Below are positions 8,629 to 48,018 of a stretch of 48,018 nucleotides of DNA, in pieces. Location of the stretch: assembly GCA_964409675.1 (NCBI GenBank), contig CAYPEF010000003.1, positions 1 through 48,018 of the forward strand, read 5' to 3'. Source of the DNA: an uncultured Rickettsiales bacterium (GTDB lineage Bacteria > Pseudomonadota > Alphaproteobacteria > Rickettsiales > SXRF01). Position 1 is the first letter of the stretch. Each line of letters opens with the position of its first letter. A program made the translations under genes and the position numbers. The notes under the pieces were generated by a model. It saw nothing but the letters and a program-made list of their open reading frames with translations. It was not told the DNA's origin and ran no database searches.

Positions 8629-9165
8629 CTATTTATCCAAAATATTAATAAACGCCAATGATAATACCGCTTCATCCGCCTCCGAATCAGTGCTATCGCC
8701 CTCCGCCAGCCGTATTATTCTGCCAACCCCTGCCGCCCGGCCCGCCTGCACGTCGCTTTCCTTGTCACCGATGAGAATGCTTTCCCGCAGATCGATGCCA
8801 TGCTCGCGCGCTGCCTGCAATATCATCCCCGGTTGCGGTTTGCGGCAATGGCAATTCTGCCGGTATTCCCCCTGCCCCGCTTCCGGGTGGTGCGGGCAGT
8901 AATAGGTCTGGGTGATAGTGATATTCTGCTGCGCGAACTGCGCATGTATCCATGCGGTGAAAGCGTGGAATTGCGCCTCGCTGTAATAGCCGCGCCCGAT
9001 GCCCGCCTGGTTAGTAACGATAATAATCAAATATCCTTGCGCCTGCGCCGCTGCGCAAAGCGCGAAAATACCTTCTACGAACTCGCAATTCTCCGGCGTA
9101 TGCACATAGCCGTGATCGATATTGATCACCCCGTCGCGGTCAAGAAAAAGCGCTTTGCGTAACAC
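8629..9165 (-). CDS. gmhB: D-glycero-D-manno-heptose 1,7-bisphosphate phosphatase (HAD family)
   Basis: FLDRDGVIN (DxDG HAD motif I), TNQAGIGRGY, Zn-site CPHHP...CHCRKP, and GDKESD motif. Confidence 0.85.
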   Translation of the reverse strand: MLRKALFLDRDGVINIDHGYVHTPENCEFVEGIFALCAAAQAQGYLIIIVTNQAGIGRGYYSEAQFHAFTAWIHAQFAQQNITITQTYYCPHHPEAGQGEYRQNCHCRKPQPGMILQAAREHGIDLRESILIGDKESDVQAGRAAGVGRIIRLAEGDSTDSEADEAVLSLAFINILDK

Positions 9166-9168
9166 CGC

Positions 9169-10266
9169 TTAATTGACGAGGCTCAGGCGCACCTTGCGCT
9201 CCACCGGATCGGCGCGCGGCTCGGGCGTTTTGAGGTGGTAGAAATCGCGCCGTGTGAGCGAGGTCTGCGAATAACCGTGGCGGTCGAAGAAGACGATGCT
9301 GGAGCCCTGCGTTTCAAACGAAAACGGCACCCAGAGCAGGTCTTCCAGCGCCTGCATGATGCGCAAATGCTGCTCCGGCTTGGCGAAAAACAGCATGAAC
9401 CCGCCGCCGCCCGCCCCCAGCAGCTTGCCGCCGATGGCCCCGGCCTTGCGCGCGCGGGCATAAATATCGTCCACGAAATCCGGCGCGATACTGGCCGAGA
9501 GCGAGCGTTTCAGCTGCCACGTTTCATGCAGCATGCGCCCGAATTCGCAGATATCGCCCCGGGCGGTCACGCAGCCAACCGCCTCGTCCACCAGCTCGCG
9601 CATGGCATTAAGTTCCATCTTCTTGTCGCCGCGCGCCTGGCTTTGCATCTGGTCTTTAGCAATATTGGAGGCGGTGCGCGACACGCCGGTGAAAAACAGC
9701 AGGAAATGGCTCTGCAATTCCTCCAGCCGTTCCGGCGGCACAATCACCGGCTCGACGCAGAAATCGCCGTCCCGCTTGATGGTGACGCGGTTGAAACCAC
9801 CGAACGCCGTGCCGATCTGGTCCTGCACGCCGACATTCTCGCGCAGCACGTCGCGCTCGATATGCACCGCTTCGCAGGCCAGTTCGCGCTTGTTGCTCAT
9901 GCGCCCCTGCAGCGCATTGACCGCATTGAGCAGCCCCACGGTAAAGGCCGAGCTGGAGCCAAGGCCCGAGCGCGCTGGCAAATCGCCGCTATGGAGAATT
10001 TCCATGCCGTTATCGATATTCAGATGCTGCAGCACCGCCCGCACCGCCGGATGCTCGATTTCGGCATTGTCATGCACCTGCTCGATGCGCGACCAGACGA
10101 TACGCGAGCGCTCCTCGAAAAAGGGTGGCAGGTAGCGACAGGTGATATAGCAGTAATGGTTGATCGAGGTGGAAAGCACGCTGCCCCCGTGCTCTTGGTA
10201 CCAGGTATGGTAATCAGTGCCGCCGCCGAAAAATGAAACACGGTAGGGGGTACGGCTGATGATCAT
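9169..10266 (-). CDS. hddA: GHMP sugar kinase, D-glycero-alpha-D-manno-heptose 7-phosphate kinase type
   Basis: N-terminus SRTPYRVSFFGGGTDY typical of HddA-type kinases. GHMP motif PARSGLGSSSAF. Adjacent to gmhB. Confidence 0.8.
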   Translation of the reverse strand: MIISRTPYRVSFFGGGTDYHTWYQEHGGSVLSTSINHYCYITCRYLPPFFEERSRIVWSRIEQVHDNAEIEHPAVRAVLQHLNIDNGMEILHSGDLPARSGLGSSSAFTVGLLNAVNALQGRMSNKRELACEAVHIERDVLRENVGVQDQIGTAFGGFNRVTIKRDGDFCVEPVIVPPERLEELQSHFLLFFTGVSRTASNIAKDQMQSQARGDKKMELNAMRELVDEAVGCVTARGDICEFGRMLHETWQLKRSLSASIAPDFVDDIYARARKAGAIGGKLLGAGGGGFMLFFAKPEQHLRIMQALEDLLWVPFSFETQGSSIVFFDRHGYSQTSLTRRDFYHLKTPEPRADPVERKVRLSLVN

Positions 10267-11204
10267 GCGGTTTTCCTTGCTTCCTCGGTGAAATGATACG
10301 CATACATGCGGCCGAGACCTTCTTCCAGCGAAATCACCGGTTTCCAGCCAAGCGAAAACAGCTTGCCGGAATCCAGCATCTTGCGCGGCGCGCCATCAGG
10401 CTTTTCGGTATCGAGCGAGATGTTGCCGCGATAGCCGACGGTTTTCGCCACCAGCTTCGCCAATTCGCCAATGGTAATCTCCTGCATGGAGCCGACATTG
10501 ATGATTCCGGGATCATCGTAGCGCTCCATCAGGAACAGCAGCGCATCCGCCAGGTCATCGACATAGATAAACTCGCGCAGCGGCGTGCCGCTGCCCCAGA
10601 TCACCTCCTCCGGCGAAAGGGCGAGCTTCGCCGCGTGGAAGCGCTTCATCAGCGCCGGGATCACGTGGCTGGCGGCAGGGTCAAAATTATCATTGATGCC
10701 GTAGGTATTGGTCGGCATCGGCACCACCACCTGCATGCCATATTCGCGCGCATAGGACTGCGCCATGGTAATGCCGTTAATCTTGGCGGCGGCGTAGGCG
10801 ATATTGGTCGGCTCGATATAGCCGTTCAGGAATTCTGCTTCCGCCACCGGCTGCGGCGCGAGCTTGGGATAAGTGCAGGCGGAGCCGGGAAAGAGCAGCT
10901 TCCGCACGCCCGCCTTACGCGCCGCATCCATCACGTTCAGGTGCATTGCCGTATTGTCATAGATAAACTGGCCGGGGTACGTGCTGTTGGCGTGAATGCC
11001 CCCCACCCGCGCCGCCAGGTGGAATACATAGTCCGGCTTTTGTGCAGCCATGTAAGCATTCACCGCAGCCTGATCGCGCAATTCCAGCTCGGCATGCGCG
11101 GGCGCAAGAACCCGGCTAAACCCGCGCTCCGCCAGCAGGCGGCGCAAGGCGGAGCCGACCATCCCTGACGCGCCAGTGATGAGAATGGAATCGTTTTTCT
11201 GCAT
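10263..11204 (-). CDS. GDP-L-fucose synthase family 3,5-epimerase/4-reductase (Fcl/ColC-like)
   Basis: ILITGASGMVGSAL Rossmann motif, YAAAK catalytic dyad, PTNTYGINDNF. Start trimmed to MQKNDS (11204); the ORF-track extension to 11384 runs into the divergent spacer. Confidence 0.75.
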   Translation of the reverse strand: MQKNDSILITGASGMVGSALRRLLAERGFSRVLAPAHAELELRDQAAVNAYMAAQKPDYVFHLAARVGGIHANSTYPGQFIYDNTAMHLNVMDAARKAGVRKLLFPGSACTYPKLAPQPVAEAEFLNGYIEPTNIAYAAAKINGITMAQSYAREYGMQVVVPMPTNTYGINDNFDPAASHVIPALMKRFHAAKLALSPEEVIWGSGTPLREFIYVDDLADALLFLMERYDDPGIINVGSMQEITIGELAKLVAKTVGYRGNISLDTEKPDGAPRKMLDSGKLFSLGWKPVISLEEGLGRMYAYHFTEEARKTA

Positions 11205-11269
11205 GACGCGGTGAAAAAACCCCTTGTTTTTCTCTGATTTTGCCGATTTGTTAACCGGTAACGAATGCA

Positions 11270-12364
11270 TTGAGGTATAGCATGGAAGCCAAACGGGAGC
11301 AAACCATTCTAAATCACGCGCAAGCGATTGTTTTAGAAGCATCAAAGATTGCCTTGCGCGAGCGCGCCAAGCCGGAGCTTGCATGCACCGAAGAAAAACT
11401 GCTGGAGCAGCTTAATCTGCGCTCGGGAAGCAAGGAAGACCCGGTCACGCCCGATGCATTCCTGACCGCGAAAAAACCCGCCGACAACAGCACTGTCACC
11501 AGCGCCGATATACTGGCGCAGGACTATATGCAGAAAGAACTGCATAAAATAGTGCCGGAAGCCGCTTTCACCGGTGAGGAAAAAGGCGGCGATGCCGGCG
11601 CGGAAGCTTCCTTGCGCTGGGTAGCCGACCCGGTGGACGGCACCGGTAATTTCCTGCGCGGCAAATACCCGGAGCAGAATCCTAACCCTGAGCGCCGCCG
11701 CTTCGGCCACCTGCTGGCGCTGGAGGAAGCAGGCAATCCCGTGATCGCCGTCATGTTCTGCCCCGAGCCGGACGCGAGCGCCAAGCATTTGAACGGCACG
11801 CTCTACGTCGCCACCGCCCATACCCTCACCCGCATTATCCCGGTGCGCGAGGGGGAGATGAAAACGCAGGAAGCGGTTGAAGCGCAGCCCCTTCCCCGCC
11901 CTGCCGCACCACAAACGTTTTCATACGGGACCTTCGACCCCGCCCTGCTCGGCCCGAAACACGGCCAGCCGGATACTGCGCGGCAGGCGCTCACTACTGC
12001 CGCTGCCGAGCACGGAATGCAGGGGCGGGAGATGTTCTGCTTCGCCGCCGGGGCGGAAGACGTGCTGACCGGGCGCGGCGTATGCGCCAACGGCGTTAAT
12101 TGCGAGTGGGATTCCGCCGCACCGGCGCTGCTGTTTCAGCAAGCGGGTATACCCTTTGCCGAATACGCCAACGGCACCGGGCCGGACGGCAGCGCGCGCT
12201 TCGCCATGATCGCCGCGCCGGATACCACTTCTTTTGCCGCTGTAAACGATGCATATAATGCGCAGTTTGCCGGACGCACCGACGCGCCACCGTTGCTGCG
12301 CTTCGCCCATACCACGCCGCCCTGCGCCGCGCCCGCCTCCGCTGCCGCAGGCAGAAGTCGATAA
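11270..12364 (+). CDS. Inositol-monophosphatase / CysQ (PAP phosphatase) superfamily protein
   Basis: Metal-site motifs FTGEEKGG, WVADPVDGTGNF and CEWDSAAPALLFQQAG (WDxAAG). Longer than typical family members. Confidence 0.6.
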   Translation: MRYSMEAKREQTILNHAQAIVLEASKIALRERAKPELACTEEKLLEQLNLRSGSKEDPVTPDAFLTAKKPADNSTVTSADILAQDYMQKELHKIVPEAAFTGEEKGGDAGAEASLRWVADPVDGTGNFLRGKYPEQNPNPERRRFGHLLALEEAGNPVIAVMFCPEPDASAKHLNGTLYVATAHTLTRIIPVREGEMKTQEAVEAQPLPRPAAPQTFSYGTFDPALLGPKHGQPDTARQALTTAAAEHGMQGREMFCFAAGAEDVLTGRGVCANGVNCEWDSAAPALLFQQAGIPFAEYANGTGPDGSARFAMIAAPDTTSFAAVNDAYNAQFAGRTDAPPLLRFAHTTPPCAAPASAAAGRSR

Positions 12365-12429
12365 ATGATTGCCGATGCCAGGCGCAGCCGCTATAAAAAG
12401 CGGTCCTTAACCCCAAGCTGAAAGCCCCT

Positions 12430-13398
12430 ATGCCGACCCCGGACATTGCCACCACCAAGCGCCTCTACCATTCCATGCAGCTCATCCGCCGCGTGGAGGA
12501 GCATATCTGCGAAGTCTATCACACCGACGCCATCAAAAGCCCGGTGCACCTCTCCATCGGCCAGGAATCGGTGGCCAGCGGCATCTGCGACGCCATGCAG
12601 GCCGACGACATGGTTTCCAACACCTACCGCTGCCACGCCACCTACATCGCCAAGGGCGGCGATTTGCGCCAGATGATGGCCGAGCTCTACGGCAAATCCG
12701 GCGGCTGCGCGGGCGGCAAGGCGGGCTCGATGCATTTGATCGACATGCCAAACGGCGTGATGGGCGCATCCGCTGTGGTCGGCACCACCGTGCCGGTAGC
12801 GGCGGGCTATGCGCAAGCGCTGCAGTGGGATGCCAAAAAAACCGGCAAGCAGCGCGCCGTAGTCGCCATCTGCGGCGATGGAGCCACCGAGGAAGGCGGC
12901 TACAGCGAAACGCTCAATTACGCCGCGCTGAAAAAACTCCCCATCCTGTTCGTGGTGGAAAATAACGGCTTCGCCATTCACACCCCCATCTTCCGCCGCC
13001 AGCCCAACTGGAATTTGCGCGCCCGCGTGGAAACCTACGGCATCCCCACCCAGTTTATCGATAACGGCGACGTCTTCACCATCCGCGAAGCCACCGCGCA
13101 GGCGCTCGCCCACATCCGTAACGGCGAAGGTCCGCAATTTTTAGAGTGCACCACCTACCGCTGGATGGAGCATGTCGGCCCTACCGACGACCACGACCAC
13201 GGCCCCTACCGCGATTTGAAGGAATACGCCCGCTGGAAGGAATCCGACCAGATCGCCAGACTCGCCAAAACCCTCGGCAAGGAAGCCGAAGCCATCAATT
13301 TGCAGGTAGAAGCCGAACTGCGCGACGCCGTGGATTTCGCCGAAGCCTCGCCCTACCCCTCTAATGCCGAACTGATGAGCCACGTCTATGCCGCATAA
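12430..13398 (+). CDS. ThDP-dependent 2-oxoacid dehydrogenase E1 component, alpha subunit-like
   Basis: E1_dh-type motifs: YRCHATYIAKG, GSMH, ICGDGATEEGGYSETLNYA (ThDP/Mg GDG-x-N motif), TYRWMEHVGPTDD. Confidence 0.85.
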   Translation: MPTPDIATTKRLYHSMQLIRRVEEHICEVYHTDAIKSPVHLSIGQESVASGICDAMQADDMVSNTYRCHATYIAKGGDLRQMMAELYGKSGGCAGGKAGSMHLIDMPNGVMGASAVVGTTVPVAAGYAQALQWDAKKTGKQRAVVAICGDGATEEGGYSETLNYAALKKLPILFVVENNGFAIHTPIFRRQPNWNLRARVETYGIPTQFIDNGDVFTIREATAQALAHIRNGEGPQFLECTTYRWMEHVGPTDDHDHGPYRDLKEYARWKESDQIARLAKTLGKEAEAINLQVEAELRDAVDFAEASPYPSNAELMSHVYAA

Positions 13399-14494
13399 CC
13401 TCGCCCTGAAAGAACGCGAACCCACCAAGGCCACGGATAACAAGCGCCTGATCCGCTACGTGGATGCCATTGCCGAGGCCTGCGCGCAGGCGATGGAAGA
13501 AGATGAGCGCGTATTCGTCTTCGGCCTTGACGTGGACGACCATAAATCCATCCAGGGCTCCACGGCGGGCCTCGTGGAGAAATTCGGGCCGGACCGCTGC
13601 TTCGGCACGCCGCTTTCGGAAGACGCGATGACCGGCATGGCCATCGGCGCGGCTATGGCAGGTTACCGCCCGGTGCATGTGCATATCCGCATGGATTTCA
13701 TGCTGCTGGCCATGAACCAATTGATCAATATCGCCGCCAAGGCGCATTACATGTATAATGGCCAGGTGCGCGTGCCTTTGGTGGTTCGCACCATGGTGGG
13801 CCGCTCCTGGGGTCAGGGCGCGCAGCATTCCCAGGCGCTGCATTCCATGTTCATGCATGTGCCGGGCCTTAAAGTGGTGGCCCCCTCCAACGCGCATGAT
13901 GCCAAGGGCTGCATGCTGGCCGCCATCCGCGATGATTCTCCCGTGATTTTCATGGAGCACCGCCTGCTCTGCAACATGCAGTCCTATGTGGACGAGGCAA
14001 TGTACGAAGTTCCCTTCGGCAAGGCGCGCGTGATGCATGAGGGCAAGGACGTCACCATCCTCGGCATCTCGCATATGGTGATTGAGGCCTTGCGCGCTTC
14101 GCATTACCTTGAAAAATCCGGCATCTCCGCCGAAGTGATCGACCCGATTTCCCTGCGCCCGCTGGATATGGATACCATCATTGCCTCCGTTAAAAAAACC
14201 GGCCGCTTATTGATCGTGGACAATGGCTGGCAGATGTGCGGCGCGGGCGCGGAGATCATGGCGCAGGTGTTCGAGCGGCTGCCGCAAGGCGTGAACGGCA
14301 AACCGGTCGCCATGAAGCGCATGGGCTTCGCCGATACGCCCTGCCCCACCACCAAGCCACTGGAAAACCTGTTTTACCCCAACGGCAAAACCATCGCCGA
14401 AGCCGCTTTCCGTCTGGTAGATCCAAATGGCAAGATCGACCTTCCTGCCGATCATGAGATCAAGGAAGTCGATGAATTCAAAGGGCCGTTTTAA
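13388..14494 (+). CDS. ThDP-dependent E1 component, beta subunit-like (transketolase pyrimidine-binding plus C-terminal domains)
   Basis: DERVFVFGLDV...KFGPDRCFGTPLSEDAMTGMAIGAAMAGYRPV... typical of E1 beta. 11-nt overlap with the alpha gene. Confidence 0.85.
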   Translation: MPHNLALKEREPTKATDNKRLIRYVDAIAEACAQAMEEDERVFVFGLDVDDHKSIQGSTAGLVEKFGPDRCFGTPLSEDAMTGMAIGAAMAGYRPVHVHIRMDFMLLAMNQLINIAAKAHYMYNGQVRVPLVVRTMVGRSWGQGAQHSQALHSMFMHVPGLKVVAPSNAHDAKGCMLAAIRDDSPVIFMEHRLLCNMQSYVDEAMYEVPFGKARVMHEGKDVTILGISHMVIEALRASHYLEKSGISAEVIDPISLRPLDMDTIIASVKKTGRLLIVDNGWQMCGAGAEIMAQVFERLPQGVNGKPVAMKRMGFADTPCPTTKPLENLFYPNGKTIAEAAFRLVDPNGKIDLPADHEIKEVDEFKGPF

Positions 14495-15216
14495 TGGCGC
14501 AGGCTGCCTCCCTCCTCTCCGCTGAAGACACGCTTCTCACCCAGTATGCGCGCGACGGCTATTGCATTCAGGAAAACGTGTTTTCCCCGCAGGAATGCGA
14601 TCATTTAATTGCGGCGGCGAAAGAATTGCCGGACTACCGGCAGGGCATCGTCAAGCCCGCCATGATGCCGCACCGCGTGGATGCCATCTTCCTGCACGCA
14701 CTGAAAAACCCCGCCATCGTCACCATGATGGAAAAGCTGGTGGGCGGCAAGGCAGCCGGCCTGCAAACCGAATTCTTCTACTGCAAGCCCGGCACGCGCG
14801 GCTTTTCCAACCATCAGGATAATTTCTTCGTGCAGGCCCCGTTCGGCGTGTTTGCCTCCGCGTGGATCGCGCTGACCGACACCTATAAGGAAAAAGGCGG
14901 CCTGATCGTCTATCCCGGCACACATGAAGAAGGCCTGCTGCCGGTGCGCCCGGTTGCCATAAGCAAGGATAGCGGCCAGGACCCCAATGCCAACAACGAA
15001 GAATGCGTCATCCCGCCTCGCTACCAGCCGCTGAACGCCTCCGTCCCCAAAGGCGCGGTGCTCTATATCCATGGCCACGTGGTGCACGGCTCCAACCCCA
15101 ACACCACCGATGAATGGCGCTACGTATTGCTCAATACCTACGTCAAAAAAGGCGAGCCCTTCCGCGCCGGTAAATATGCCCAGCGTGAAGAGGTGAATCT
15201 CTACCAATCCGCCTGA
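14494..15216 (+). CDS. Phytanoyl-CoA dioxygenase (PhyH) family Fe(II)/2-oxoglutarate oxygenase
   Basis: HxD motif in GFSNHQDNFF, distal His in IHGHVVHGSNPN. TAATG overlap with the E1 beta stop. Confidence 0.75.
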   Translation: MAQAASLLSAEDTLLTQYARDGYCIQENVFSPQECDHLIAAAKELPDYRQGIVKPAMMPHRVDAIFLHALKNPAIVTMMEKLVGGKAAGLQTEFFYCKPGTRGFSNHQDNFFVQAPFGVFASAWIALTDTYKEKGGLIVYPGTHEEGLLPVRPVAISKDSGQDPNANNEECVIPPRYQPLNASVPKGAVLYIHGHVVHGSNPNTTDEWRYVLLNTYVKKGEPFRAGKYAQREEVNLYQSA

Positions 15217-16496: not shown

Positions 16497-16504
16497 GAGT
16501 CAGC

Positions 16505-17557: not shown

Positions 17558-17561
17558 GCAT

Positions 17562-17596
17562 AAAAAAAGCCCGCATCCTCCGATGCGGGCTTTTTT
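17562..17596. terminator. Bidirectional rho-independent terminator between convergent genes
   Basis: A7 run, 9-bp stem GCCCGCATC / GATGCGGGC, loop CTCC, then T6 run. Confidence 0.8.
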
Positions 17597-17611
17597 ATAA
17601 CTACAGATACA

Positions 17612-18448: not shown

Positions 18449-18452
18449 AATC

Positions 18453-19367: not shown

Positions 19368-19513
19368 GAAGGCTCTTGATCCTTGTCAAAAATGAGGAAA
19401 AATAAAAGGTCGAATATCCCCGGCTGTCAACGATAATTTGTATTGCAAGCTGAAAGCGTGGCCGTTACACCTTGCGGCAAGACATTTTTCACCAATTCTT
19501 TAGGAGAAGAGTC

Positions 19514-21422: not shown

Positions 21423-21441
21423 TCCCGGTAACAGCAGACGC

Positions 21442-23364: not shown

Positions 23365-23390
23365 TTTCCTCTAACGGCTCGCTAAGCGAC

Positions 23391-32727: not shown

Positions 32728-32730
32728 CCC

Positions 32731-35585: not shown

Positions 35586-35752
35586 TTTCACCATCCTTAT
35601 GAATATGAACCCGCAAGCTACAGCCCCCGCCGGCAAACGCAACCCGAAAATGCACGCCTGCCAAGGCATACGCGCCTTTTTCATACAAGCGCTTTACCGA
35701 GGCGTTCAATCGCCCTACAAGCACGCAAGCAGAACTACGAAAGGAATCCTGC

Positions 35753-38150: not shown

Positions 38151-38191
38151 ATTCGGCACTTGCCTGGAAATATGCAGTGCCAGCGGCACCT

Positions 38192-39175: not shown

Positions 39176-39301
39176 GCTGTTCCTATCATTTATCTTCTGG
39201 GATGCGCCTTCGAGTTGTAATGGCCCCCGCATGGCGAGGCAAGCGCATAAATCGGGCGAGAGCGGTTGCGCATGAGGTGAGAGCGTGGCATAGTCGCGCC
39301 C

Positions 39302-41310: not shown

Positions 41311-42600
41311 TTACGCCGCCGCTTTCACGCCTTGCGCGGCCATAAACTCGTCGATGCATTTCGCCACGTATTCGCAGGCTTCCTTGCTCACCGCATGATG
41401 GCAGCCGACGGCAAAGCCACGGGTCATGATGGTATCGCAATTCTCCAGCGTTCCCGCCACGCGGTGGGTGAACATCTTGAGCGCCGGGTGCTTGGCCATG
41501 TTGCCGGCGATGATTGGCCGGGTTTCGATGTTTTTCTTGTTCAGGAACGCTGTGATATCCCTCGGCGTAAACGGCGCGCCCTCTTTCAGCACGATGCCGA
41601 AGCCGAACCAGCTGGCCTCGCCGCCCGTTTGCTCCTCCTGGAAGCGGAAATAGCGGGAGTGCTTGTCCAGCAGTTTGCGGTAGGTATCGCGCGCCGCGCG
41701 GCGGTTTTTCACGAAGCCTTCCAGCTTGGGCAGCTGCTTCATGCCCATCACCGCCTGCACTTCGGTGGGGCGCAGATTATAGCCGAGATTGATGAAGATA
41801 AAGCGCGGGTCGATCTCGGGGTATTCCTTGATATATTTCTCTTTCTCATCCGCCTCGCGGCTCCAGCCGTGGGCGCGGAGCACGCGCATCAGTTCGGTGA
41901 GCTTGAAATTATCGGTAAAGCAGATGCCGCCCTCAAACGTGGTGATGTGGTGCGAGTAATAAAAGCTCATGGTGCCGACATCGCCGAGCGTGCCGATCAT
42001 CTTGCCCTTGTATTTTGCACCCATCGATTCGCAGGTATCCTCGATCACGTAAAGCTTGTGCTTCTTGGCCAGCGCCAGAATGGCATCCATGTCGCACGGA
42101 TTGCCGTACACGTGCACGAGCATAATGGCCTTGGTTTTGGGCGTAATCGCCGCTTCCAGCTTCTTCATGTCGAAATTATAGGTATCCAAATCGCAATCCA
42201 CGAACACCGGCACCAGCTGATGCTGAATCAGCGGCCAGACAGTCGTTGCCCAAGAAAGCGCGGGCACGATCACCTCATCGCCCGGCTTCAAATGATTCTC
42301 CCACGCCGGATTCGCCAGCGCCGCCACAGCGAGCAAATTGGCCGAGGAGCCGGAATTGTTCATTAAGCTGTATTTGCAGCCGAAATAGGAAGCGCACTGC
42401 TCCTCAAAGCTGCGCACCTGCTTGCCCATGGTGACCATGGTGGAGAGCGACTGATTGATCATCGCGTTCACCTCTTCCGCGCCGAAGCTTGTCTCATGCA
42501 GGCGCACGGCGGGGTTTGTTGGGTCGAAAGCGAAGTTGAAATGCTCCTTGCAGTAGGCGTTTACGTTTTCTTCAATCGCTTGCAGATGCTTGTCGGTCAT
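41311..42600 (-). CDS. PLP/PMP-dependent NDP-4-keto-6-deoxy-sugar 3-dehydratase, ColD-like (DegT/DnrJ/EryC1 fold)
   Basis: SFYYSHHITTFEGG: the Schiff-base Lys position is His (codon 41950-41952, CAC on the minus strand). LRAHGWSRE, LSWATT and ASWFGFGIVLKEG blocks resemble ColD. No Cys-rich Fe-S motif as in RfbH/E1. Start at MTDKHLQ (42600) with a GAGGAGA SD. Confidence 0.8.
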   Translation of the reverse strand: MTDKHLQAIEENVNAYCKEHFNFAFDPTNPAVRLHETSFGAEEVNAMINQSLSTMVTMGKQVRSFEEQCASYFGCKYSLMNNSGSSANLLAVAALANPAWENHLKPGDEVIVPALSWATTVWPLIQHQLVPVFVDCDLDTYNFDMKKLEAAITPKTKAIMLVHVYGNPCDMDAILALAKKHKLYVIEDTCESMGAKYKGKMIGTLGDVGTMSFYYSHHITTFEGGICFTDNFKLTELMRVLRAHGWSREADEKEKYIKEYPEIDPRFIFINLGYNLRPTEVQAVMGMKQLPKLEGFVKNRRAARDTYRKLLDKHSRYFRFQEEQTGGEASWFGFGIVLKEGAPFTPRDITAFLNKKNIETRPIIAGNMAKHPALKMFTHRVAGTLENCDTIMTRGFAVGCHHAVSKEACEYVAKCIDEFMAAQGVKAAA

Positions 42601-42619
42601 ATTCACTCTCCTCGTTGTC

Positions 42620-42681
42620 ATTCCCGCGCAGGCGGGAATCTAGCTTTACTTACATTCCTGGATTCCCGCTTGCGCGGGAAT
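42620..42681. repeat. Two ATTCCCGC-N4-GCGGGAAT palindromes (ATTCCC-N8-GGGAAT type) 42 bp apart
   Basis: 42620-42639 ATTCCCGCGCAGGCGGGAAT and 42662-42681 ATTCCCGCTTGCGCGGGAAT, both in the 89-nt spacer between the Gmd/Rmd-like and ColD-like genes. Confidence 0.8.
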
Positions 42682-42689: not shown

Positions 42690-43706
42690 TTAGCGCGTCA
42701 AAAACTGGCTGCCGCTGGCTACGCGCTCGCGCCAGTAATCGAGCAGGTCCTGCATGGTTTTCTCAAACGGTATCTGCGGTTTCCAGCCGGTATGGGCTTC
42801 GAATTTAGTTGTGTCCGGCACCTGCAAATCGGCATCAATGGGGCGCAGGCGGTCGGGGTCAATCTCCACCTTGATTTCCCCTTTTTTCGGCGACAGCGAG
42901 ATCAGATGATTCAGCATCTCACGCACCGAGCAGGTGAACTGCCCGCCGATATTGTAATACGCCCCCGGCGTCGGGTTGATCGTCACCAGCATCACATACG
43001 CTCGCACCGCATCGCGCACGTCGGCAAAGGTGCGTAAAGAATCCAGGTTGCCTACCTTGATCACCGGCGCGATCATCCCCTGCTCGATCATGGCAATCTG
43101 CTTGGCAAACGTCGACTCGGCGAATACGTCGCCGCGCCTCGGGCCGGTATGGGTGAACATGCGGGTGGTCATCACCTTCATGTTGTAAGCCTCGGCATAG
43201 AAGCGCCCCACCAGGTCAGTGCCGACCTTGGAAATGGCGTAAGGAGACGCCGGGTGGAACGTGCATTCCTCGTTAATCGGCAGCTTCTCCTTCGGCACCC
43301 GTCCGAACACTTCCGAAGAGGCGCAGACATGGATCACCGCGTCCTGCTTGTAGGTTTTCAGCGCCTCCAGCACGCGGCTGGTGCCCTGGATATTGGTTTC
43401 ATACGTATCCAGCGGGGCGGTGAAGCTGGTTTTGGGGTAGCTCTGCGCGGCGAGGTGAAACACGTAATCCGGCAGGCACAGGCGCACCGCCTCGTTAATC
43501 GAGTCGGAATCGCGCAAATCGCCGTAGATCAGGTGAATGCGGTCTTTGCTGTTAATGCGCGGGATAAGGTGGGAGAGGTTATCCAAGGGGCTGCGCCAGC
43601 GCGTTAAACCGTAAATTTCCCAGTCAGTCTGCTCCAGCAGGAAATCCGCCAGGTGGGAACCGACCATGCCGGTAATGCCGGTGATGAATGCGCGTTTTTT
43701 GGTCAT
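42690..43706 (-). CDS. GDP-sugar 4,6-dehydratase / 4-reductase family SDR (Gmd/Rmd-like)
   Basis: AFITGITGMVGSHL, ASSEVFG, SPYAISK (YxxxK), FTHTGPRRGDVF, VGNLDSLRTFADVRD. Sits between hddC and the ColD-like gene. Confidence 0.65.
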   Translation of the reverse strand: MTKKRAFITGITGMVGSHLADFLLEQTDWEIYGLTRWRSPLDNLSHLIPRINSKDRIHLIYGDLRDSDSINEAVRLCLPDYVFHLAAQSYPKTSFTAPLDTYETNIQGTSRVLEALKTYKQDAVIHVCASSEVFGRVPKEKLPINEECTFHPASPYAISKVGTDLVGRFYAEAYNMKVMTTRMFTHTGPRRGDVFAESTFAKQIAMIEQGMIAPVIKVGNLDSLRTFADVRDAVRAYVMLVTINPTPGAYYNIGGQFTCSVREMLNHLISLSPKKGEIKVEIDPDRLRPIDADLQVPDTTKFEAHTGWKPQIPFEKTMQDLLDYWRERVASGSQFLTR

Positions 43707-43709
43707 TAG

Positions 43710-44426
43710 TCAGGCTGCGTTTTTCTTAATGAATGGTTTTAATTCTGCTTCCGCTCTCGCGTAATCGCTGGGGATGCCGATGTCAATAAAATACCCCTTC
43801 ACCTCATAGCCGTACATCGGGATGACATCCGCATAGGGCCGCTGATAATCGACCTCAAAGGAAAAAACTTCCGGCAGGCTCAGCCCGGCAAATGCGTCCG
43901 GCGAAATAATATAGCAGCCGGTGCTGATAAACCCTTCCCCCGCCCCGCCGGGATAGCAGAACGATACAATCCGTCCGTCCGGCGTGCAGCCTATTTCCCC
44001 GTAACGGCTGCAATCGGGCATATTGCGCAGTGCAACCGTCACTTTCGCCTGTTTTTCCTCATGTTCCTTCAGCATGGCGGGAATATCCGCCTCTACGAAT
44101 GTATCGCCGTTGGAGACATAGACCGGCTTCTCCGGCTGCAAGGCATCCAGCGCCAGCCTGATCGCCCCACCGGTGCCAAGCGGTGTGGATTCCTCCGTAT
44201 AGGTAATCGGCATCCCCTCAAACGCATCCCCGAAATAGGAGCGGATAACCGGGGCCAGATGGTGCAGCGACAGCAGCGCATGCGTTATCCCCTGCCCTTG
44301 CAGGTAGCGCAGGTAATGCGCCAGAAACGGCTCGCCCGCAATCGGGGCCATGGGTTTGGGAATATCCTCGCCGATGGCGGATTTCAACCGTGTGCCGAAT
44401 CCCCCGGCAAGGATAATGGCCTGCAT
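43710..44426 (-). CDS. hddC: D-glycero-alpha-D-manno-heptose 1-phosphate guanylyltransferase-type nucleotidyltransferase
   Basis: MQAIILAGGFGTRLKS...PKPMAPI, LGTGGAI. ~238 aa. Flanked by gmhA. Confidence 0.7.
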   Translation of the reverse strand: MQAIILAGGFGTRLKSAIGEDIPKPMAPIAGEPFLAHYLRYLQGQGITHALLSLHHLAPVIRSYFGDAFEGMPITYTEESTPLGTGGAIRLALDALQPEKPVYVSNGDTFVEADIPAMLKEHEEKQAKVTVALRNMPDCSRYGEIGCTPDGRIVSFCYPGGAGEGFISTGCYIISPDAFAGLSLPEVFSFEVDYQRPYADVIPMYGYEVKGYFIDIGIPSDYARAEAELKPFIKKNAA

Positions 44427-44431
44427 GCAGC

Positions 44432-45049
44432 TTACGCCATTGCCTTATCGGCTTTGGGCGCATATTCCGTGCCGAAAATGGCCTGCTCGATCAGCGAGCA
44501 ATAGATATGGCCGAGCAGCATATGGCATTCCTGGATTTTCGGCGTCTCGTTCGAAGGCATGCACAGGCAGAGATCGCACAGAGCCTTCATTTTCCCCCCG
44601 CTTTTACCGGTCTTGCCGATCACCGCGATTCCTTTAGCTTTCGCCGCCTCGATAGCCTTCAGGATATTGGGTGAATTGCCGGAGGTGGAGATGGCAATCA
44701 GCACGTCTCCCTCCTGCCCCACCGCTTCCACCTGGCGGGAGAAGGCGTTTTCAAACCCGTAATCGTTGCCGATGGCAGTCAGCGCCGACGTATCCACGGT
44801 CAGCGCCAGCGCGCACAGGCCAGGACGGTTAAAATTCAGCCGCGACACCAGCTCAGCGCTTAAATGCTGCGAATCCGCCGCCGAGCCGCCATTGCCGCAG
44901 AACAGGATTTTCCTGCCCGCCCGCAGTGCCCGCTCGCAGACATCGCTTACCTCCTGCACTTGCGCAAGCAGGTTCGTATCGGCCAGTAGCGCGTCGATGG
45001 TGGCGCGGGTTTTGCGGATTTCATCGGCAATCATCGGGTGCATGGACAT
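44432..45049 (-). CDS. gmhA: Phosphoheptose (sedoheptulose-7-phosphate) isomerase, SIS domain
   Basis: FCGNGGSAADSQHLSAELVSR, TAIGNDYGFENAFSRQV, ISTSGNSPNI. Confidence 0.85.
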   Translation of the reverse strand: MSMHPMIADEIRKTRATIDALLADTNLLAQVQEVSDVCERALRAGRKILFCGNGGSAADSQHLSAELVSRLNFNRPGLCALALTVDTSALTAIGNDYGFENAFSRQVEAVGQEGDVLIAISTSGNSPNILKAIEAAKAKGIAVIGKTGKSGGKMKALCDLCLCMPSNETPKIQECHMLLGHIYCSLIEQAIFGTEYAPKADKAMA

Positions 45050-45052
45050 TCC

Positions 45053-45853
45053 TTACAAGTAATAAACGAAATTGCGCCGCCCGATATGGTAGCAGCCATA
45101 GCCGATCATCATCGCCACCACTGATACTGCGCAGGATTTCAGCAGCATGGCAAGCGTCGGCAGCGTATGATGATAGACCAGCTCCACCGCCGGCTGCATC
45201 AGGATAACAATCGGGTTCCATTGCAAGATGGCCTGCACCCATTCCGGCACGGCGGCTACCGGATAAACAATGGCGCTGAACCAGAATAGCATGTTCATGG
45301 CCACCATAATCGCCTCGCCGATATCGCGCACATACGGCGCGGTGAAGGCAATGCCGATCGCCATTCCCATGACGGCGCCCAGCACCGGCAGGAAATAAAT
45401 GGGCCATAACAGCACATGCAGCGACACCGGCGCGCCCAGCAGGGTAACGAACCCCAGCATCGTTAGAAATGCGATGAAATATGTATAGACGTTGCGGAAT
45501 ACATCCGCGATCGGGAAAATGGTGGAGGAGATCATACAGCGCTTAAGCGTCTCCCCTTGCGCCAGCAGCGACGCGCTCGCCCCGATCATCGAGGAAGAAA
45601 TGAACCCCCACAGCGGCAGTGTGCAGATGATATAAAGCGTATAATCTGAATGCGGCATGCGCATAATCATCGGCATAATCACCGAATAAACAATCACCAT
45701 CGAAAGCGGCTGGAACAGCGTCCAGAGGATGCCAAGATAGGAATTGCGGTACTGGCGCGTCAACCCGCTTTTGGCGATCAGCACGGCGGTGCGCCAGTAA
45801 TAAGGATCAAGGAATATGGCGAATTGTCGCATACGGCTAGGCACTGGCTGCAT
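45053..45853 (-). CDS. wzm: ABC-2 type polysaccharide export permease
   Basis: ~266 aa with six hydrophobic segments, ABC-2 layout. 17-nt overlap with the upstream ATPase gene. Confidence 0.8.
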   Translation of the reverse strand: MQPVPSRMRQFAIFLDPYYWRTAVLIAKSGLTRQYRNSYLGILWTLFQPLSMVIVYSVIMPMIMRMPHSDYTLYIICTLPLWGFISSSMIGASASLLAQGETLKRCMISSTIFPIADVFRNVYTYFIAFLTMLGFVTLLGAPVSLHVLLWPIYFLPVLGAVMGMAIGIAFTAPYVRDIGEAIMVAMNMLFWFSAIVYPVAAVPEWVQAILQWNPIVILMQPAVELVYHHTLPTLAMLLKSCAVSVVAMMIGYGCYHIGRRNFVYYL

Positions 45854-46625
45854 GCCTCACCTCCCCGGGCAAAGCCGTCTCAGGCGGGCGCGGCAGGTGC
45901 AGAATATCCTCGCGGTACTGGCGGATGATCTCGCGCCCCGGCCCTTCATTGATAATACGCCCCTGGTGCATCAGCACGAAGCGGTTGCATATATTAACCA
46001 TCTCGTCATGGTTATGACTGATGATAATGGTAATGGCCGCATTGTTTACCTTAGCCTTGATCGCTTCCGCCGATTTATGGGTAAAGCCTGCATCGCCGGT
46101 GGCAAAAATCTCGTCCAGCAGTAGGATGTCCGGCTCCTGGAAAATCGCCGAGGAAAAAGCCAGGCGGGAAGCCATGCCGGAGGAATAGGATTTCAGCGGC
46201 AGGTCGATTTTCTCGCCAAGCTCGGAGAATTCGATCACCTTTTCTTCAATATCCCTGGAATATTCGCGCAGCTTCCCGCGATAGGCATAGGTGAGCTTGA
46301 TATTGCCCCGTCCTGACACTTCGCTTTCAAACCCCGCCCCCATCTCGATCAACGGCACGATGGTGCCTTCCACATGCCGCACCCCGGCATGGATCGGGTA
46401 ATTGCCGGAAATTACTTTCAATAACGAAGATTTACCGCTGCCGTTCGCCCCCAGCAGGGCAATGCGGTCGCCAGCTTTGGCTTCAAACGAAACATCCTGT
46501 AAAATGGGAATGCGCACTGGGCGCAGCGAAGCGCGGCGGGTGAACCACTGCCGAAGCGTCGCCGCACGTGCATGCGTATCGATTCCGTAAACGGAAATAT
46601 TCTGAAGCTGTATCAGTGCGGACAT
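45837..46625 (-). CDS. wzt: Polysaccharide export ABC transporter ATP-binding protein (NBD only, no C-terminal carbohydrate-binding module)
   Basis: Walker A GANGSGKSS, signature YSSGMASRL, Walker B ILLLDE, H-loop SHN. 262 aa. Confidence 0.85.
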   Translation of the reverse strand: MSALIQLQNISVYGIDTHARAATLRQWFTRRASLRPVRIPILQDVSFEAKAGDRIALLGANGSGKSSLLKVISGNYPIHAGVRHVEGTIVPLIEMGAGFESEVSGRGNIKLTYAYRGKLREYSRDIEEKVIEFSELGEKIDLPLKSYSSGMASRLAFSSAIFQEPDILLLDEIFATGDAGFTHKSAEAIKAKVNNAAITIIISHNHDEMVNICNRFVLMHQGRIINEGPGREIIRQYREDILHLPRPPETALPGEVRHAASA

Positions 46626-46684
46626 GGGTTATACGTAACTCGTAATTCCTCTGCGTGTAGCACTGCACCGGGCATTCTTCAACT

Positions 46685-46718
46685 TTATTCCCTCTCCCAG
46701 CGGCGGGAGAGGGAATAA
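46685..46718. repeat. REP-like hairpin sharing the CCCTCTCCC/GGGAGAGGG core with 41279-41301
   Basis: Perfect 14-bp stem TTATTCCCTCTCCC / GGGAGAGGGAATAA with loop AGCGGC, immediately after the PMM stop codon. Confidence 0.75.
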
Positions 46719-46721
46719 GAT

Positions 46722-48018
46722 TTACGCCGCCAGCGCTTGCGCGGCGATGCCGCTGGCGCGCAGCTGTTCCAGCAATTGTGCCGAAAGTTTATCTAAATCG
46801 GCCTGCGTATAGGCTTCCGCGCGGGCGATTAACTGGCCGCCGGTGTTGGAAGCGCGCAGCAGCCACCAGCCTTCCGGCACTTCCACGCGCACGCCGTCCA
46901 CGTCGTTAAACGGAACGCCCTGTTTCTTCAGCCGCTCGCGCACCTCAGCCACCACGTCGAATTTGCGCGATTCTTCGCATTCCAGCCGGATTTCCGGGGT
47001 GTTGACCATCACGGGCAGCGCGTCCAGCATGGCGTCCAGCGGCTGCGCGGCGTTATCCGCCAGCAGATTCACCAGTCGCAGCGCCGCGTAGATCGCATCG
47101 TCGAATCCGTAATAGCCGTCGGCGAAGAACATGTGGCCGCTCATCTCGCCCGCCAGGAGCGCCTTGGTTTCCTTCATCTTGCTCTTGATCAGCGAGTGGC
47201 CGGTTTTCCACATGATACCGTTCGCGCCCTGCTTCTTCAGACCATCGAACAGCACGCGGCTGGCTTTCACGTCGCCGATCACCGTTGCGCCCGGGTGACG
47301 GGAGAGTACGTCACGCGCGTAGATCAGCAGCAGCTGGTCGCCCCACAAAATGCGGCCCTTGCGGTCGATCACGCCGAGCCGGTCGCCGTCGCCGTCGAAG
47401 GCGATGCCTAAGTCGCAGTGTTTCGCCTTCACCAACTCGCTCAGCTGGACAAGATTTTTCGGCACCGTCGGGTCCGGGTGGTGCGCCGGGAAGGTACCGT
47501 CAATTTTTGCATTGATCACATAATGCGTACCCGCCAGCGCCTTGGCGATGCGCTCCATCACTTCGCCGGTCGCCCCGTTGCCGGGGTCCCATGCCACGGT
47601 TAACGGCTTCGCCTTCGCGCCTTGCGCGAGATTCGGCGCATCGCGCAGCAAGCGCTCCATGTAATCGGCTTTCAGGTCAAATACCTGCTCGCTTCCGCCT
47701 GCCCGGTCCGGCACGCCCTGCTGCGCGCGCTGGCCCAGTTGCTTGATCTGCTCGCCGAAGAAGGAGGCGTGCCCCAGCATCATCTTGAAGCCGTTATGCG
47801 TCGGCGGGTTGTGCGAGCCGGTCACCATGATGCCCGCATCCGCGCTTAGATGATAGACGGCGAAATAAAGCATCGGCGTCGGCCCCAGCCCAACGTTCAG
47901 CACCTGCGCGCCGCCCTCCTGCAATCCCTTCGAGAGTGCCGCCGACATGGCGGGCGACGACATCCGCCCATCCCGCCCAAGCGCCACGCGTGGATTCGCC
48001 TTGCCGGAGGCTTCCGCC
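46722..48018 (-). CDS. Phosphomannomutase/phosphoglucomutase (alpha-D-phosphohexomutase), N-terminus outside the window
   Basis: GIMVTGSHNPPTHNGFKM (active-site Ser loop), FDGDGDRLGV (Mg site), GEMSGH. The frame stays open to the window edge, so the annotated 'M' at 47987 is an internal GTG Val. Confidence 0.85.
   Translation of the reverse strand, partial: AEASGKANPRVALGRDGRMSSPAMSAALSKGLQEGGAQVLNVGLGPTPMLYFAVYHLSADAGIMVTGSHNPPTHNGFKMMLGHASFFGEQIKQLGQRAQQGVPDRAGGSEQVFDLKADYMERLLRDAPNLAQGAKAKPLTVAWDPGNGATGEVMERIAKALAGTHYVINAKIDGTFPAHHPDPTVPKNLVQLSELVKAKHCDLGIAFDGDGDRLGVIDRKGRILWGDQLLLIYARDVLSRHPGATVIGDVKASRVLFDGLKKQGANGIMWKTGHSLIKSKMKETKALLAGEMSGHMFFADGYYGFDDAIYAALRLVNLLADNAAQPLDAMLDALPVMVNTPEIRLECEESRKFDVVAEVRERLKKQGVPFNDVDGVRVEVPEGWWLLRASNTGGQLIARAEAYTQADLDKLSAQLLEQLRASGIAAQALAA

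Follow-up and report, generated by a model that had tools for sequence, protein, structure and literature searches.

A conserved GDP-heptose, ColD-type and E1 alpha/beta gene module in a probable ABC-transporter-dependent polysaccharide locus of an uncultured Rickettsiales bacterium

Contig CAYPEF010000003.1 of an uncultured Rickettsiales bacterium has been analysed here over its full length of 48,018 bases (the window, which is one entire NCBI contig). From 8629 to 47987 it carries 38 open reading frames (ORFs) in 11 blocks of alternating strand, and for about 33 of the 38 a glycan function is backed by profile or PDB searches. We consider it probable that these genes form one coherent surface-polysaccharide locus, most likely for a lipopolysaccharide (LPS) O-antigen, that depends on a Wzm/Wzt ABC transporter and is fed by two nucleotide-sugar pathways. 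The products would be a C-branched 3,6-dideoxyheptose derivative, derived from GDP-heptose (pathway A), and a 3-C-methyl-6-deoxyhexose, derived from CDP-glucose (pathway B). The main interest lies in a conserved, apparently uncharacterised module of GDP-heptose genes, a ColD-type dehydratase and a split thiamine diphosphate (ThDP)-dependent E1 alpha/beta pair, and in its wide distribution, rather than in the number of enzymes. Our tentative proposal is that this module makes an undescribed nine-carbon heptose derivative branched at C-4, maybe carbocyclic and caryose-like, which would be the first alpha-KADH2-type branching in Gram-negative envelope glycans.

Functions were assigned by Pfam and NCBIfam searches (the latter with their cut-offs), PDB sequence searches and fold matches of predicted structures (Table 1). 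The original prediction for this DNA had described a locus running from 8629 to the window edge in eleven alternating blocks, with an ABC-type exporter, few clear glycosyltransferases (GTs) and many sugar-modifying enzymes, and all of this is borne out by the ORF and block counts, by the Pfam and PDB matches of Wzm/Wzt and by three GT2 proteins. The sugar-activation genes it had named (gmhA, gmhB, rfbF, rfbG and PMM, with hddA and hddC as HddA-like and HddC-like candidates), its seven short-chain dehydrogenases/reductases (SDRs) and one RmlC-type epimerase, and its carbamoyltransferase, acyltransferase_3 and E1 alpha/beta genes were found as well. Its wording that every gene is glycan-related holds for about 33 ORFs and is not shown for about five, and its gene list lacked the ColD/RfbH-type 3-dehydratase (41311-42621) and the IMPase/CysQ-like gene (11270-12364).

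Results

An E1 alpha/beta pair in a deoxysugar gene context

The two subunits of the E1 pair are encoded side by side, and the GDG...ENN ThDP motif of E1 alpha is invariant in the family alignment. Among the 45 window ORFs scanned with Pfam there is no E2, E3 or lipoyl domain, and none of the window ORFs is a single-chain ThDP enzyme of the YerE type, related to acetohydroxyacid synthase (TPP_enzyme_N/M/C). With its split subunits, intact ThDP motif, lack of E2/E3 and deoxysugar gene context, the pair shows the gene features of the alpha-KADH2 type, whose members extend keto-sugars by a C2 branch taken from pyruvate (PMC4753412, PMC12247030). The actinomycete alpha-KADH2 enzymes (AviB1/B2, Pau11/12, KbDH-alpha/beta, aldgamycin) are likewise split E1 pairs without E2/E3, with NDP-keto-deoxysugar enzymes and a ketoreductase nearby (PMC4753412; PMC12247030); the window pair differs in lying in a Gram-negative surface-polysaccharide locus and in its predicted GDP-heptose substrate, and the likeness is one of gene context, not of sequence comparison with AviB1/B2.

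A 2025 review assigns YerE-like enzymes to LPS, and alpha-KADH2 enzymes and transketolases mainly to specialised antibiotics (PMC12247030). The presence of an alpha-KADH2 pair inside Wzm/Wzt loci of many Proteobacteria therefore departs from that pattern. In the open-access literature we found no link between an E1-type enzyme and heptose genes in an O-antigen cluster; the 2024 survey of Krug et al. (about 120 alpha-KADH2 clusters) lay outside this search, and prior notice there is possible.

Genes for a GDP-heptose-derived sugar

In the GmhA/HddA/GmhB/HddC set, GmhB scored above its cut-off and GmhA was recognised by SIS_2, and the best models of the HddA-like and HddC-like proteins stayed below theirs; for the GHMP kinase, HddA is the top NCBIfam model with 143 bits against a cut-off of 600, and homologs of this kinase at 50-74% identity adjoin the E1 pair in many loci. 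For the protein encoded at 41311..42621, alignments to the CDP-type E1 dehydrase (3BCX) and to ColD (2GMS) are equally good. The protein has a catalytic His instead of Lys, its 'SHHITT' stretch aligning with His220 of the E1 dehydrase and His188 of ColD; the Cys-rich iron-sulfur (Fe-S) segment of that dehydrase ('CyCapgCdntC') is absent from it in the alignment, and Pfam scans of the window gave no ferredoxin-reductase-like gene of the E3 type (RfbI). Because of the catalytic His, the missing Fe-S segment and E3, and the adjacent dehydratase gene, we read it as a ColD-type 3-dehydratase that would act on GDP-4-keto-6-deoxyheptose. A CDP-3,6-dideoxyhexose route of the RfbFGH type was considered and rejected on these features and on the location of this DegT-family protein among GDP-heptose genes.

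A GDP-heptose/ColD-type route leads to 3,6-dideoxyheptose in Campylobacter jejuni, whose capsule pathways are alike in their GmhA/HddA/GmhB/HddC logic, their 7US5-related dehydratase, their ColD-type 3-dehydratase and their Fcl-like reductases; the window adds the E1 alpha/beta pair, PhyH-type dioxygenases and extra SDRs, and has Wzm/Wzt in place of KpsMT for export. The yersiniose and erwiniose systems (YerE/YerF and ErwE) share with it a likely 3,6-dideoxy-4-keto acceptor, ThDP-dependent branching and a subsequent ketoreduction (PMC9306805), but the window has no YerE-type single chain, its sugar would derive from GDP-heptose and not from CDP-glucose, and its 3-dehydratase is ColD-like, with neither Fe-S cluster nor E3.

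The nearest solved relatives of SDR-A, SDR-B and SDR-C are all GDP-fucose synthase or GDP-mannose 3,5-epimerase. Orthologs of SDR-C reach 80% identity, and those of the FabG-like ketoreductase, which may reduce an acetyl branch, occur at 56-68% identity in E1-linked loci. SDR-A probably starts near its residue 60. Divergent from it, the IMPase/CysQ-like gene occupies the same position in two related loci (L088 and L007; L numbers denote such loci throughout) and may encode a phosphatase for 3'-phosphoadenosine 5'-phosphate (PAP) or for a sugar phosphate, and removal of PAP would fit its position ahead of the sulfotransferase-like gene within strand block 2.

Conservation of the module

A scan of one genome per species gave 160 genomes with an E1 alpha relative, from which 80 loci were kept, and the window proteins were compared by tblastn with the related loci (83 in all), 45 of which, with ≥58% E1 alpha identity, form the close group. 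Close-group counts refer to genes within 10 kb of E1 alpha and are lower bounds, since many contigs are short. E1 beta adjoins E1 alpha in every close locus (45/45) and in 79 of all 83. Orthologs of the heptose 4,6-dehydratase (73-85% identity) and of GmhA are each present in 20 of the 45, that of SDR-A, divergent and upstream of E1 alpha, in 21, and PhyH and the N-domain of 21442..23364 in 10 each (the N-domain in 11 of the 83 E1-linked loci); in 20/45 the pair lies in physical linkage with GmhA, HddC and the heptose dehydratase. A ColD ortholog is linked to it in the nearest relatives (L007, L008, L054, L060 and L089). The E1 alpha subfamily has at least 120 relatives at ≥61% identity among those listed. 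Carriers are mostly metagenome-assembled genomes (MAGs) labelled Alphaproteobacteria or Rickettsiales, Legionellales, Coxiellaceae and other Gammaproteobacteria, and also include the sequenced isolate Aquicella siphonis (L004); Gammaproteobacteria bacterium BBSC-SA01 (L015) and Hyphomicrobiales UR115 (L073) are further isolates with the module.

The synteny comparison that the original prediction had called for revealed long collinear stretches. L088 is collinear with window positions 10,263-23,364 over 12 consecutive genes at 54-83% identity (26% for the IMPase-like gene). A single ENA contig, covered by L003 and L089, holds homologs of about 18 window genes, among them the dehydratase (85%), ColD (81%), SDR-B (89%) and SDR-C (78%), and also the E1 pair, PhyH, the ketoreductase, the GT-B-like protein, Wzm/Wzt, a Pfam sulfotransferase and a Wzy_C/O-antigen-ligase-family gene. 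In L007 and L008 the genes GmhA-HddC-dehydratase-ColD-SDR-C-SDR-B-ketoreductase form near-contiguous operons. In the window this order is broken by GT2 genes, the GT-B-like gene and the acyltransferase gene, which accounts for part of the alternating-block pattern. Pathway A, the hydroxylase/methyltransferase pairs and the Pfam-less candidate GT at 21442..23364 thus travel as a conserved unit. At 2343-3551 and 14365-17262 of L089 the cluster has the ligase-family gene and two MBOAT acyltransferases; the window has acyltransferase_3 instead.

E1 relatives below 58% identity, for example in Azospirillum, stand in another context, with a GHMP kinase, a nucleotidyltransferase, a DegT aminotransferase, a B12 radical-SAM enzyme and a TPR-GT9 protein. 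In L069 (Azospirillum doebereinerae GSF71, 317-15428) the E1 pair, at 55% identity, has these same neighbours (the TPR plus GT9-like protein is of 1086 aa and the radical-SAM enzyme is B12-binding) and an AMP-ligase as well, a different and undescribed sugar pathway in a cultured bacterium. An Azospirillum match to Wzt was set aside as probably not Wzt, as it adjoins a branched-chain amino-acid ABC permease (PF02653).

These distant loci bear on another role for the E1 pair, namely that it extends a sugar phosphate before activation in the manner of transketolase or DXS, or supplies acyl or hydroxyethyl groups. Both subunits have weaker matches to DXS and transketolase models, the loci below 58% combine the GHMP kinase and nucleotidyltransferase with a true DegT-like aminotransferase and often have no 4,6-dehydratase, and the Fcl-like SDR-A is hard to place after branching at C-4. 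We nevertheless regard this role as rather unlikely: close-group loci combine the pair with a dehydratase whose product is precisely the 4-keto acceptor used by YerE and alpha-KADH2 enzymes, GmhA could not, on chemical reasoning, isomerise a DXS-like 1-deoxy-ketose, and the characterised alpha-KADH2 sugar enzymes take pyruvate and ketone acceptors (PMC12247030).

Exporter and glycosyltransferases

In the PDB searches the exporter is closest to the Aquifex aeolicus O-antigen Wzm-Wzt, followed by mycobacterial RfbE, TarGH and KpsMT. The Wzt alignment stops near residue 243 and the C-terminal carbohydrate-binding domain is absent (full-length A. aeolicus Wzt has 404 aa), and therefore export is not expected to depend on a cap, even though genes for FkbM and for the coiled-coil sulfotransferase-like protein are present. 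ABC-dependent O-polysaccharide loci with a short Wzt (Klebsiella pneumoniae O2a type, with A. aeolicus as the structural reference) likewise have Wzm plus Wzt, no Wzx/Wzy, cytoplasmic GTs, and initiation and ligation encoded elsewhere. The window departs from them in its far larger number of sugar-pathway and modification genes and its candidate capping-type enzymes (FkbM and the coiled-coil sulfotransferase-like protein), and none of its GTs was recognised as polymerising. In a crude hydropathy scan only the acyltransferase, Wzm and the upstream UbiA are multi-transmembrane proteins, so that the 48-kb window holds no Wzx, Wzy, WaaL or polyprenyl-phosphate glycosyltransferase, as the original prediction had said of Wzx, Wzy and the initiating enzyme. 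Since the window is a whole contig and the locus runs to its end, the right-hand end of the locus lies outside view.

The same chemistry could serve a capsule or another non-LPS glycan, such as a group-2-like capsular polysaccharide or a protein or S-layer glycan. Loci that modify heptose are familiar above all from the capsules of C. jejuni, KpsMT and TarGH are also detectable relatives of the Wzm/Wzt pair, and WaaL, WecA and core genes are missing from the window. We consider this unlikely, as the exporter resembles O-antigen Wzm-Wzt and mycobacterial RfbE before KpsMT, no KpsC-, KpsS-, KpsD- or KpsE-like protein was found in the window, and the related L089 cluster contains an internal Wzy_C/O-antigen-ligase-family gene.

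For the O-antigen-type locus that we favour, three further proteins are candidate GTs, as had been predicted, and for one of them a GT-B-like fold was obtained: the family of 36804..38150 has >660 homologs without a Pfam domain, and the top fold matches of its model are GT-B glycosyltransferases at low TM-scores of 0.33-0.37. Some members of this family (P0179, P0183, P0187, P0191-P0195 and others) carry a fused DegT/aminotransferase domain and reach 621-625 aa; the fusion points to a link to amino or keto sugars. The candidates at 26761..27894 and 21442..23364 are unproven; the N-domain of the latter has no Pfam or PDB sequence match, and calling it a glycosyltransferase is a guess. In L003 (14467-17271, minus strand) a 934-aa protein adjoining Wzm/Wzt carries this N-domain twice in tandem. 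Polymerising glycosyltransferases in ABC-dependent pathways typically have such a two-domain layout.

The window ORF with this N-domain, taken from 21322 to 23364, contains at its C-terminal end, as an in-frame fusion, a segment (residues 577-638, window 23050-23235) that resembles DUF772, the N-terminal part of IS5-type transposases. We take it for a stable domain, because the L088 ortholog (15997-17781), which comes from a different metagenomic contig, has kept it; an insertion-sequence (IS) scar was rejected on this ground and in view of there being no repeats and no plasmid match.

CDP-glucose-derived pathway and carbamoyl block

RfbF, RfbG and the 3-C-methyltransferase form one operon, and a convergent operon carries RmlC, the short SDR, the CmcI-type O-methyltransferase and a GT2. 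The 3-C-methyltransferase has a Zn-binding N-domain, an S-adenosylmethionine domain and a C-terminal domain, with KijD1 and TcaB9 near 4RV9 among solved sugar 3-C-methyltransferases. Azotobacter makes CDP-vinelose, a CDP-linked 3-C-methyl-2-O-methyl-6-deoxyhexose. For the virenose of Coxiella burnetii LPS a TylCIII-type 3-C-methyltransferase acting on an NDP-4-keto-6-deoxyhexose has been proposed (PMC3539893); pathway B is likewise of the TylCIII type, and differs in that the carrier is CDP, a CmcI-type O-methyltransferase is added and the block is an insertion in a larger locus.

Nothing in the related loci corresponds to the CDP-glucose block (23.4-31 kb), to the carbamoyltransferase with its methyltransferase (31.1-33.8 kb), to the acyltransferase or to one of the GT2s; for the first two, this covers all 83 loci. 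We read them as probable lineage-specific insertions, and the locus would accordingly be a mosaic of a widely conserved module and window-specific additions. Two separate adjoining systems, with the GDP-heptose/E1 module serving one glycan and the CDP-glucose/C-methyltransferase block another (core or a second O-chain), would also fit this missing conservation and the GT2 that the CDP-glucose block has of its own. Such a division seems unlikely, however, as a single exporter is visible, the block sits between genes of the conserved module (21442-23364 on one side, adh_short/SDR-B on the other) with its junctions confirmed by independent contigs, and insertion is a common route by which O-antigen loci diversify.

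Dioxygenase, methyltransferase and sulfotransferase-like genes

For the one coherent locus preferred here, three PhyH-type dioxygenase-like proteins had been predicted. One (14494-15216) matches Pfam PhyH directly, and lies directly after E1 beta in L002 and L088; a second (18453-19367) was reached through a profile, built from six family sequences, that matches the hydroxylase PtlH; the third (19472-20485) is tied to the second by a weak hhalign link. Direct hhalign of the latter two families against the PhyH family was not significant (E=0.11 and 0.23). The six predicted methyltransferases were recovered as FkbM, Methyltransf_24, CmcI-type, class I and TylCIII-type proteins, plus a sixth (20454-21422) with a weak match. 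The gene at 17612..18664 probably starts near 18450.

Two dioxygenase-like/methyltransferase pairs, 17612-19367 on the minus and 19472-21422 on the plus strand, diverge from each other. The first (with Methyltransf_24) is kept in L003, L006 and L088 and the second in L002, L006 and L088, and because the partners stay together in these loci, both pairs are suggested to be cassettes for hydroxylation followed by O-methylation.

The predicted sulfotransferase-like protein (15216-16496) has no Pfam support. Its structural model (pLDDT 70) matches almost exclusively sulfotransferases (E=1e-4 to 1e-3, TM-score 0.3-0.45), and motifs resembling the loops that bind 3'-phosphoadenosine 5'-phosphosulfate (PAPS; 5'-PSB/3'-PB) were read by eye; four homologs were found. 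Its N-terminus (window 15216-15545) forms a coiled coil, one helix of about 98 residues, all or most of which is missing in the four homologs. A helix of this kind is reminiscent of the rulers, likewise coiled coils, in WbdD and other chain-terminating enzymes.

Integrity of the locus and flanking genes

In addition to the functional assignments, we have compared the window with independent Logan contigs (run SRR12487045), which match it at 99.9-100% identity over 11,430-14,007, 22,772-24,237, 27,371-31,232 and 42,891-47,015, two block junctions included. GC is even across the locus (0.55-0.63), and no tRNA, Rfam family, meaningful repeat or IS element was found in the window. A MAG-type contig with many alternating strand blocks and natural-product-like enzymes might raise the suspicion of an assembly chimera of unrelated clusters, or of a gene cluster for a small-molecule glycoside. 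Both are very improbable: a chimera disagrees with the Logan contigs, the long synteny with two other metagenomes, the uniform GC and the missing repeats and IS elements, and a glycoside cluster with the O-antigen-type exporter and with there being no polyketide synthase, nonribosomal peptide synthetase or aglycone genes. Juxtaposition by assembly, which the original prediction had named as a ground for refutation, is thus contradicted by the four Logan-covered stretches and the synteny with two metagenomes.

To the left of this single locus, 8.6 kb hold ordinary genes, namely gshA, rsmE, ubiA and one for a GGDEF-EAL protein. The first 2 kb have a GC of 0.49, against about 0.58-0.6, and ORFs 241-870 and 1012-2703 (window 1-2700) have no Pfam match. 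ORF 7199-8614 (minus strand, 471 aa) gave a faint HTH_31 match and no family, and none of the related loci contains a homolog of it. It shares the strand of gmhB, starts 15 bases beyond the downstream end of that gene and may close the gmhB operon.

Table 1. Strand blocks and genes of the locus, with the main evidence for each assignment
Position	Strand	Feature	Evidence
8629-11384	-	Strand block 1	
8629..9165	-	GmhB, heptose 1,7-bisphosphate phosphatase	TIGR00213 198 bits, over cut-off
9169..10266	-	GHMP sugar kinase, HddA position	Pfam GHMP_kinases_N and _C
10263..11384	-	SDR-A, GDP-fucose-synthase-like epimerase/reductase	NF047922 398 bits; PDB 7LL6 311 bits
11270-17557	+	Strand block 2	
11270..12364	+	IMPase/CysQ-like phosphatase	Pfam Inositol_P 70.7 bits; weak HisN and CysQ matches
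12430..13398	+	ThDP-dependent E1 alpha, alpha-KADH2 type	Pfam E1_dh; pyruvate dehydrogenase E1 alpha 273 bits vs cut-off 394
13388..14494	+	E1 beta	Pfam Transket_pyr, Transketolase_C; 305 bits vs cut-off 321
14494..15216	+	PhyH-family Fe(II)/2-oxoglutarate (2OG) dioxygenase	Pfam PhyH 91 bits
15216..16496	+	Sulfotransferase-like protein	No Pfam match; invariant FxCSHGRTGNRW and RHPxTRxPSY motifs
16505..17557	+	FkbM-family methyltransferase	Pfam Methyltransf_21; 70% identical ortholog in L088
17612-19367	-	Strand block 3	
17612..18664	-	Methyltransf_24 methyltransferase	Pfam; paired with upstream dioxygenase-like gene
18453..19367	-	Remote PhyH-superfamily dioxygenase-like protein	Family profile to PtlH Fe/2OG hydroxylase (2RDN), E=6.6e-6; HxD...H motif aligned
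19472-26736	+	Strand block 4	
19472..20485	+	Second remote dioxygenase-like protein, weak evidence	hhalign to 18453-19367 family E=4.6e-4; HxD, H, R motifs aligned; no Pfam
20454..21422	+	Probable class I methyltransferase	Weak Methyltransf_25, E=5.7e-4; paired with 19472-20485
21442..23364	+	Pfam-less protein, candidate GT-A-like glycosyltransferase	Conserved ~300-aa N-domain; DUF772-like C-terminal segment
23391..23930	+	RmlC-type 3,5-epimerase	Pfam dTDP_sugar_isom 191 bits; TIGR01221 154 bits
23927..24736	+	Short SDR, probable 4-ketoreductase	Pfam Epimerase 62 bits; weak RmlD matches
24708..25502	+	CmcI/rhamnosyl-type O-methyltransferase	Pfam RMNT_CmcI 242 bits
25504..26736	+	GT2 glycosyltransferase	Pfam Glycos_transf_2
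26761-30971	-	Strand block 5	
26761..27894	-	Protein with faint GT2 similarity	Glycos_transf_2 E=0.078
27846..29210	-	TylCIII-type 3-C-methyltransferase	Pfam Methyltransf_13, _23, _14; PDB 4RV9 284 bits, 5T64, 3NDI
29110..30171	-	RfbG, CDP-glucose 4,6-dehydratase	TIGR02622 391 bits, over cut-off
30162..30971	-	RfbF, glucose-1-phosphate cytidylyltransferase	TIGR02623 310 bits, over cut-off
31108-33843	+	Strand block 6	
31108..32727	+	O-carbamoyltransferase, NodU/CmcH type	Pfam Carbam_trans_N and _C
32731..33843	+	Class I methyltransferase	Pfam Methyltransf_25 and _11
33851-35684	-	Strand block 7	
33851..34585	-	Classical short-chain ketoreductase (FabG-like)	Pfam adh_short
34575..35684	-	SDR-B, GDP-sugar-type epimerase/reductase	Pfam Epimerase; Fcl-like PDB matches; orthologs up to 89% identity
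35753-36820	+	Strand block 8	
35753..36820	+	Membrane acyltransferase_3, O-acyl transfer	Pfam Acyl_transf_3 93 bits; multiple predicted transmembrane segments
36804-39232	-	Strand block 9	
36804..38150	-	Pfam-less GT-B-like candidate glycosyltransferase, 448 aa as NCBI calls it	Model pLDDT 90.6
38192..39232	-	SDR-C, GDP-sugar-type epimerase/reductase	Pfam Epimerase; Fcl and GDP-mannose 3,5-epimerase PDB matches
39302-41129	+	Strand block 10	
39302..40228	+	GT2 glycosyltransferase	Pfam Glycos_transf_2 89 bits
40173..41129	+	GT2 glycosyltransferase	Pfam Glycos_transf_2 82 bits
41311-47987	-	Strand block 11	
41311..42621	-	ColD-type pyridoxamine-phosphate-dependent NDP-4-keto-6-deoxy-sugar 3-dehydratase	RfbH model 396 bits; PDB 3BCX, 2GMS ~282 bits each
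42690..43706	-	GDP-D-glycero-D-manno-heptose 4,6-dehydratase	PDB 7US5 362 bits, E=3.5e-107, full length
43710..44426	-	HddC-like heptose-1-phosphate guanylyltransferase	NF049965 best, 187 bits vs cut-off 300
44432..45049	-	GmhA, sedoheptulose-7-phosphate isomerase	Pfam SIS_2 98 bits
45053..45853	-	Wzm ABC-2 permease	Pfam ABC2_membrane; best PDB A. aeolicus Wzm, 6OIH/6M96
45837..46625	-	Wzt ATPase, 262 aa	Pfam ABC_tran; best PDB A. aeolicus Wzt
46722..47987	-	PMM/PGM, N-terminus lost at contig end	Pfam PGM_PMM domains I-IV; domain I from profile position 44

Discussion

The gene content suggests the following route. In pathway A, GmhA, the HddA-like kinase, GmhB and HddC would give GDP-D-glycero-alpha-D-manno-heptose, the heptose 4,6-dehydratase would convert it to the 4-keto-6-deoxy sugar, and the ColD-type enzyme would take off O-3 to leave GDP-3,6-dideoxy-4-keto-heptose. 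The E1 pair may then decarboxylate pyruvate and put the C2 unit on the C-4 ketone, as do AviB1/B2-type alpha-KADH2 enzymes, after which the FabG-like reductase and the three GDP-type SDRs would set the remaining stereocentres and reduce the branch, and the two dioxygenase/methyltransferase pairs, PhyH, FkbM and the sulfotransferase-like enzyme could decorate the product. In pathway B, RfbF and RfbG would form CDP-4-keto-6-deoxyglucose, the TylCIII-type enzyme would C-methylate C-3, and RmlC-type epimerisation, reduction by the short SDR and CmcI-type O-methylation would lead to a virenose- or vinelose-like 3-C-methyl-6-deoxyhexose. The GT2s, the GT-B-like protein and the Pfam-less conserved domain would build up the chain in the cytoplasm, with undecaprenyl phosphate as its carrier; the chain would receive carbamoyl and acyl groups and be exported by Wzm/Wzt, with the initiating transferase and the ligase encoded elsewhere. 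This chemistry agrees with the deoxy, C-branched, O-methyl, carbamoyl and possibly sulfated or hydroxylated sugars of the original prediction, as it fits the enzyme families found. The natural-product-like density of tailoring enzymes that it had stressed needs another reading: the enzymes are present, but they are mostly steps of two nucleotide-sugar pathways and not decorations of a finished polymer.

Several points weigh against this reconstruction. The HddA-like and HddC-like proteins fall under their NCBIfam cut-offs, and the sulfotransferase assignment depends on a medium-confidence model. The alpha-KADH2 type of the E1 pair follows from architecture and context, AviB1/B2-type sequences being outside the comparison. 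With C-4 quaternary, it is hard to see what an Fcl-like 4-reductase (SDR-A) would do, and there may therefore be two heptose products or another branching position. In most Legionellales-type loci no ColD ortholog was seen within 10 kb of E1, and therefore the general acceptor may be 6-deoxy-4-keto-heptose. Finally, as the window stops inside the locus and holds no WecA, WaaL or Kps genes, the O-antigen label rests on the similarity of the exporter and on the ligase-family gene of one relative.

The biosynthesis of caryose has been reported as unknown (PMC9092360). By our own reasoning, the 3,9-dideoxy-4,8-cyclo-nonose skeleton of caryose can formally be derived from a 3-deoxyheptose by adding, at C-4, a C2 unit from pyruvate, and a link between the E1/heptose module and caryose-type carbocyclic sugars is, on this formal match, speculative.

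Were the proposed chemistry wrong, the locus would be a large mosaic O-antigen-type cluster from a MAG. Should it be right, thiamine-dependent sugar branching of the E1 type would not be limited to actinomycete antibiotics, and would also commonly supply rare higher-carbon sugars for the surfaces of many Proteobacteria that are uncultured and often host-associated. The module would then provide a defined gene set for tracing unexplained branched or carbocyclic LPS sugars and their biosynthesis, new carboligases for tertiary alcohols, and candidate antigens for Legionella- and Coxiella-related lineages.

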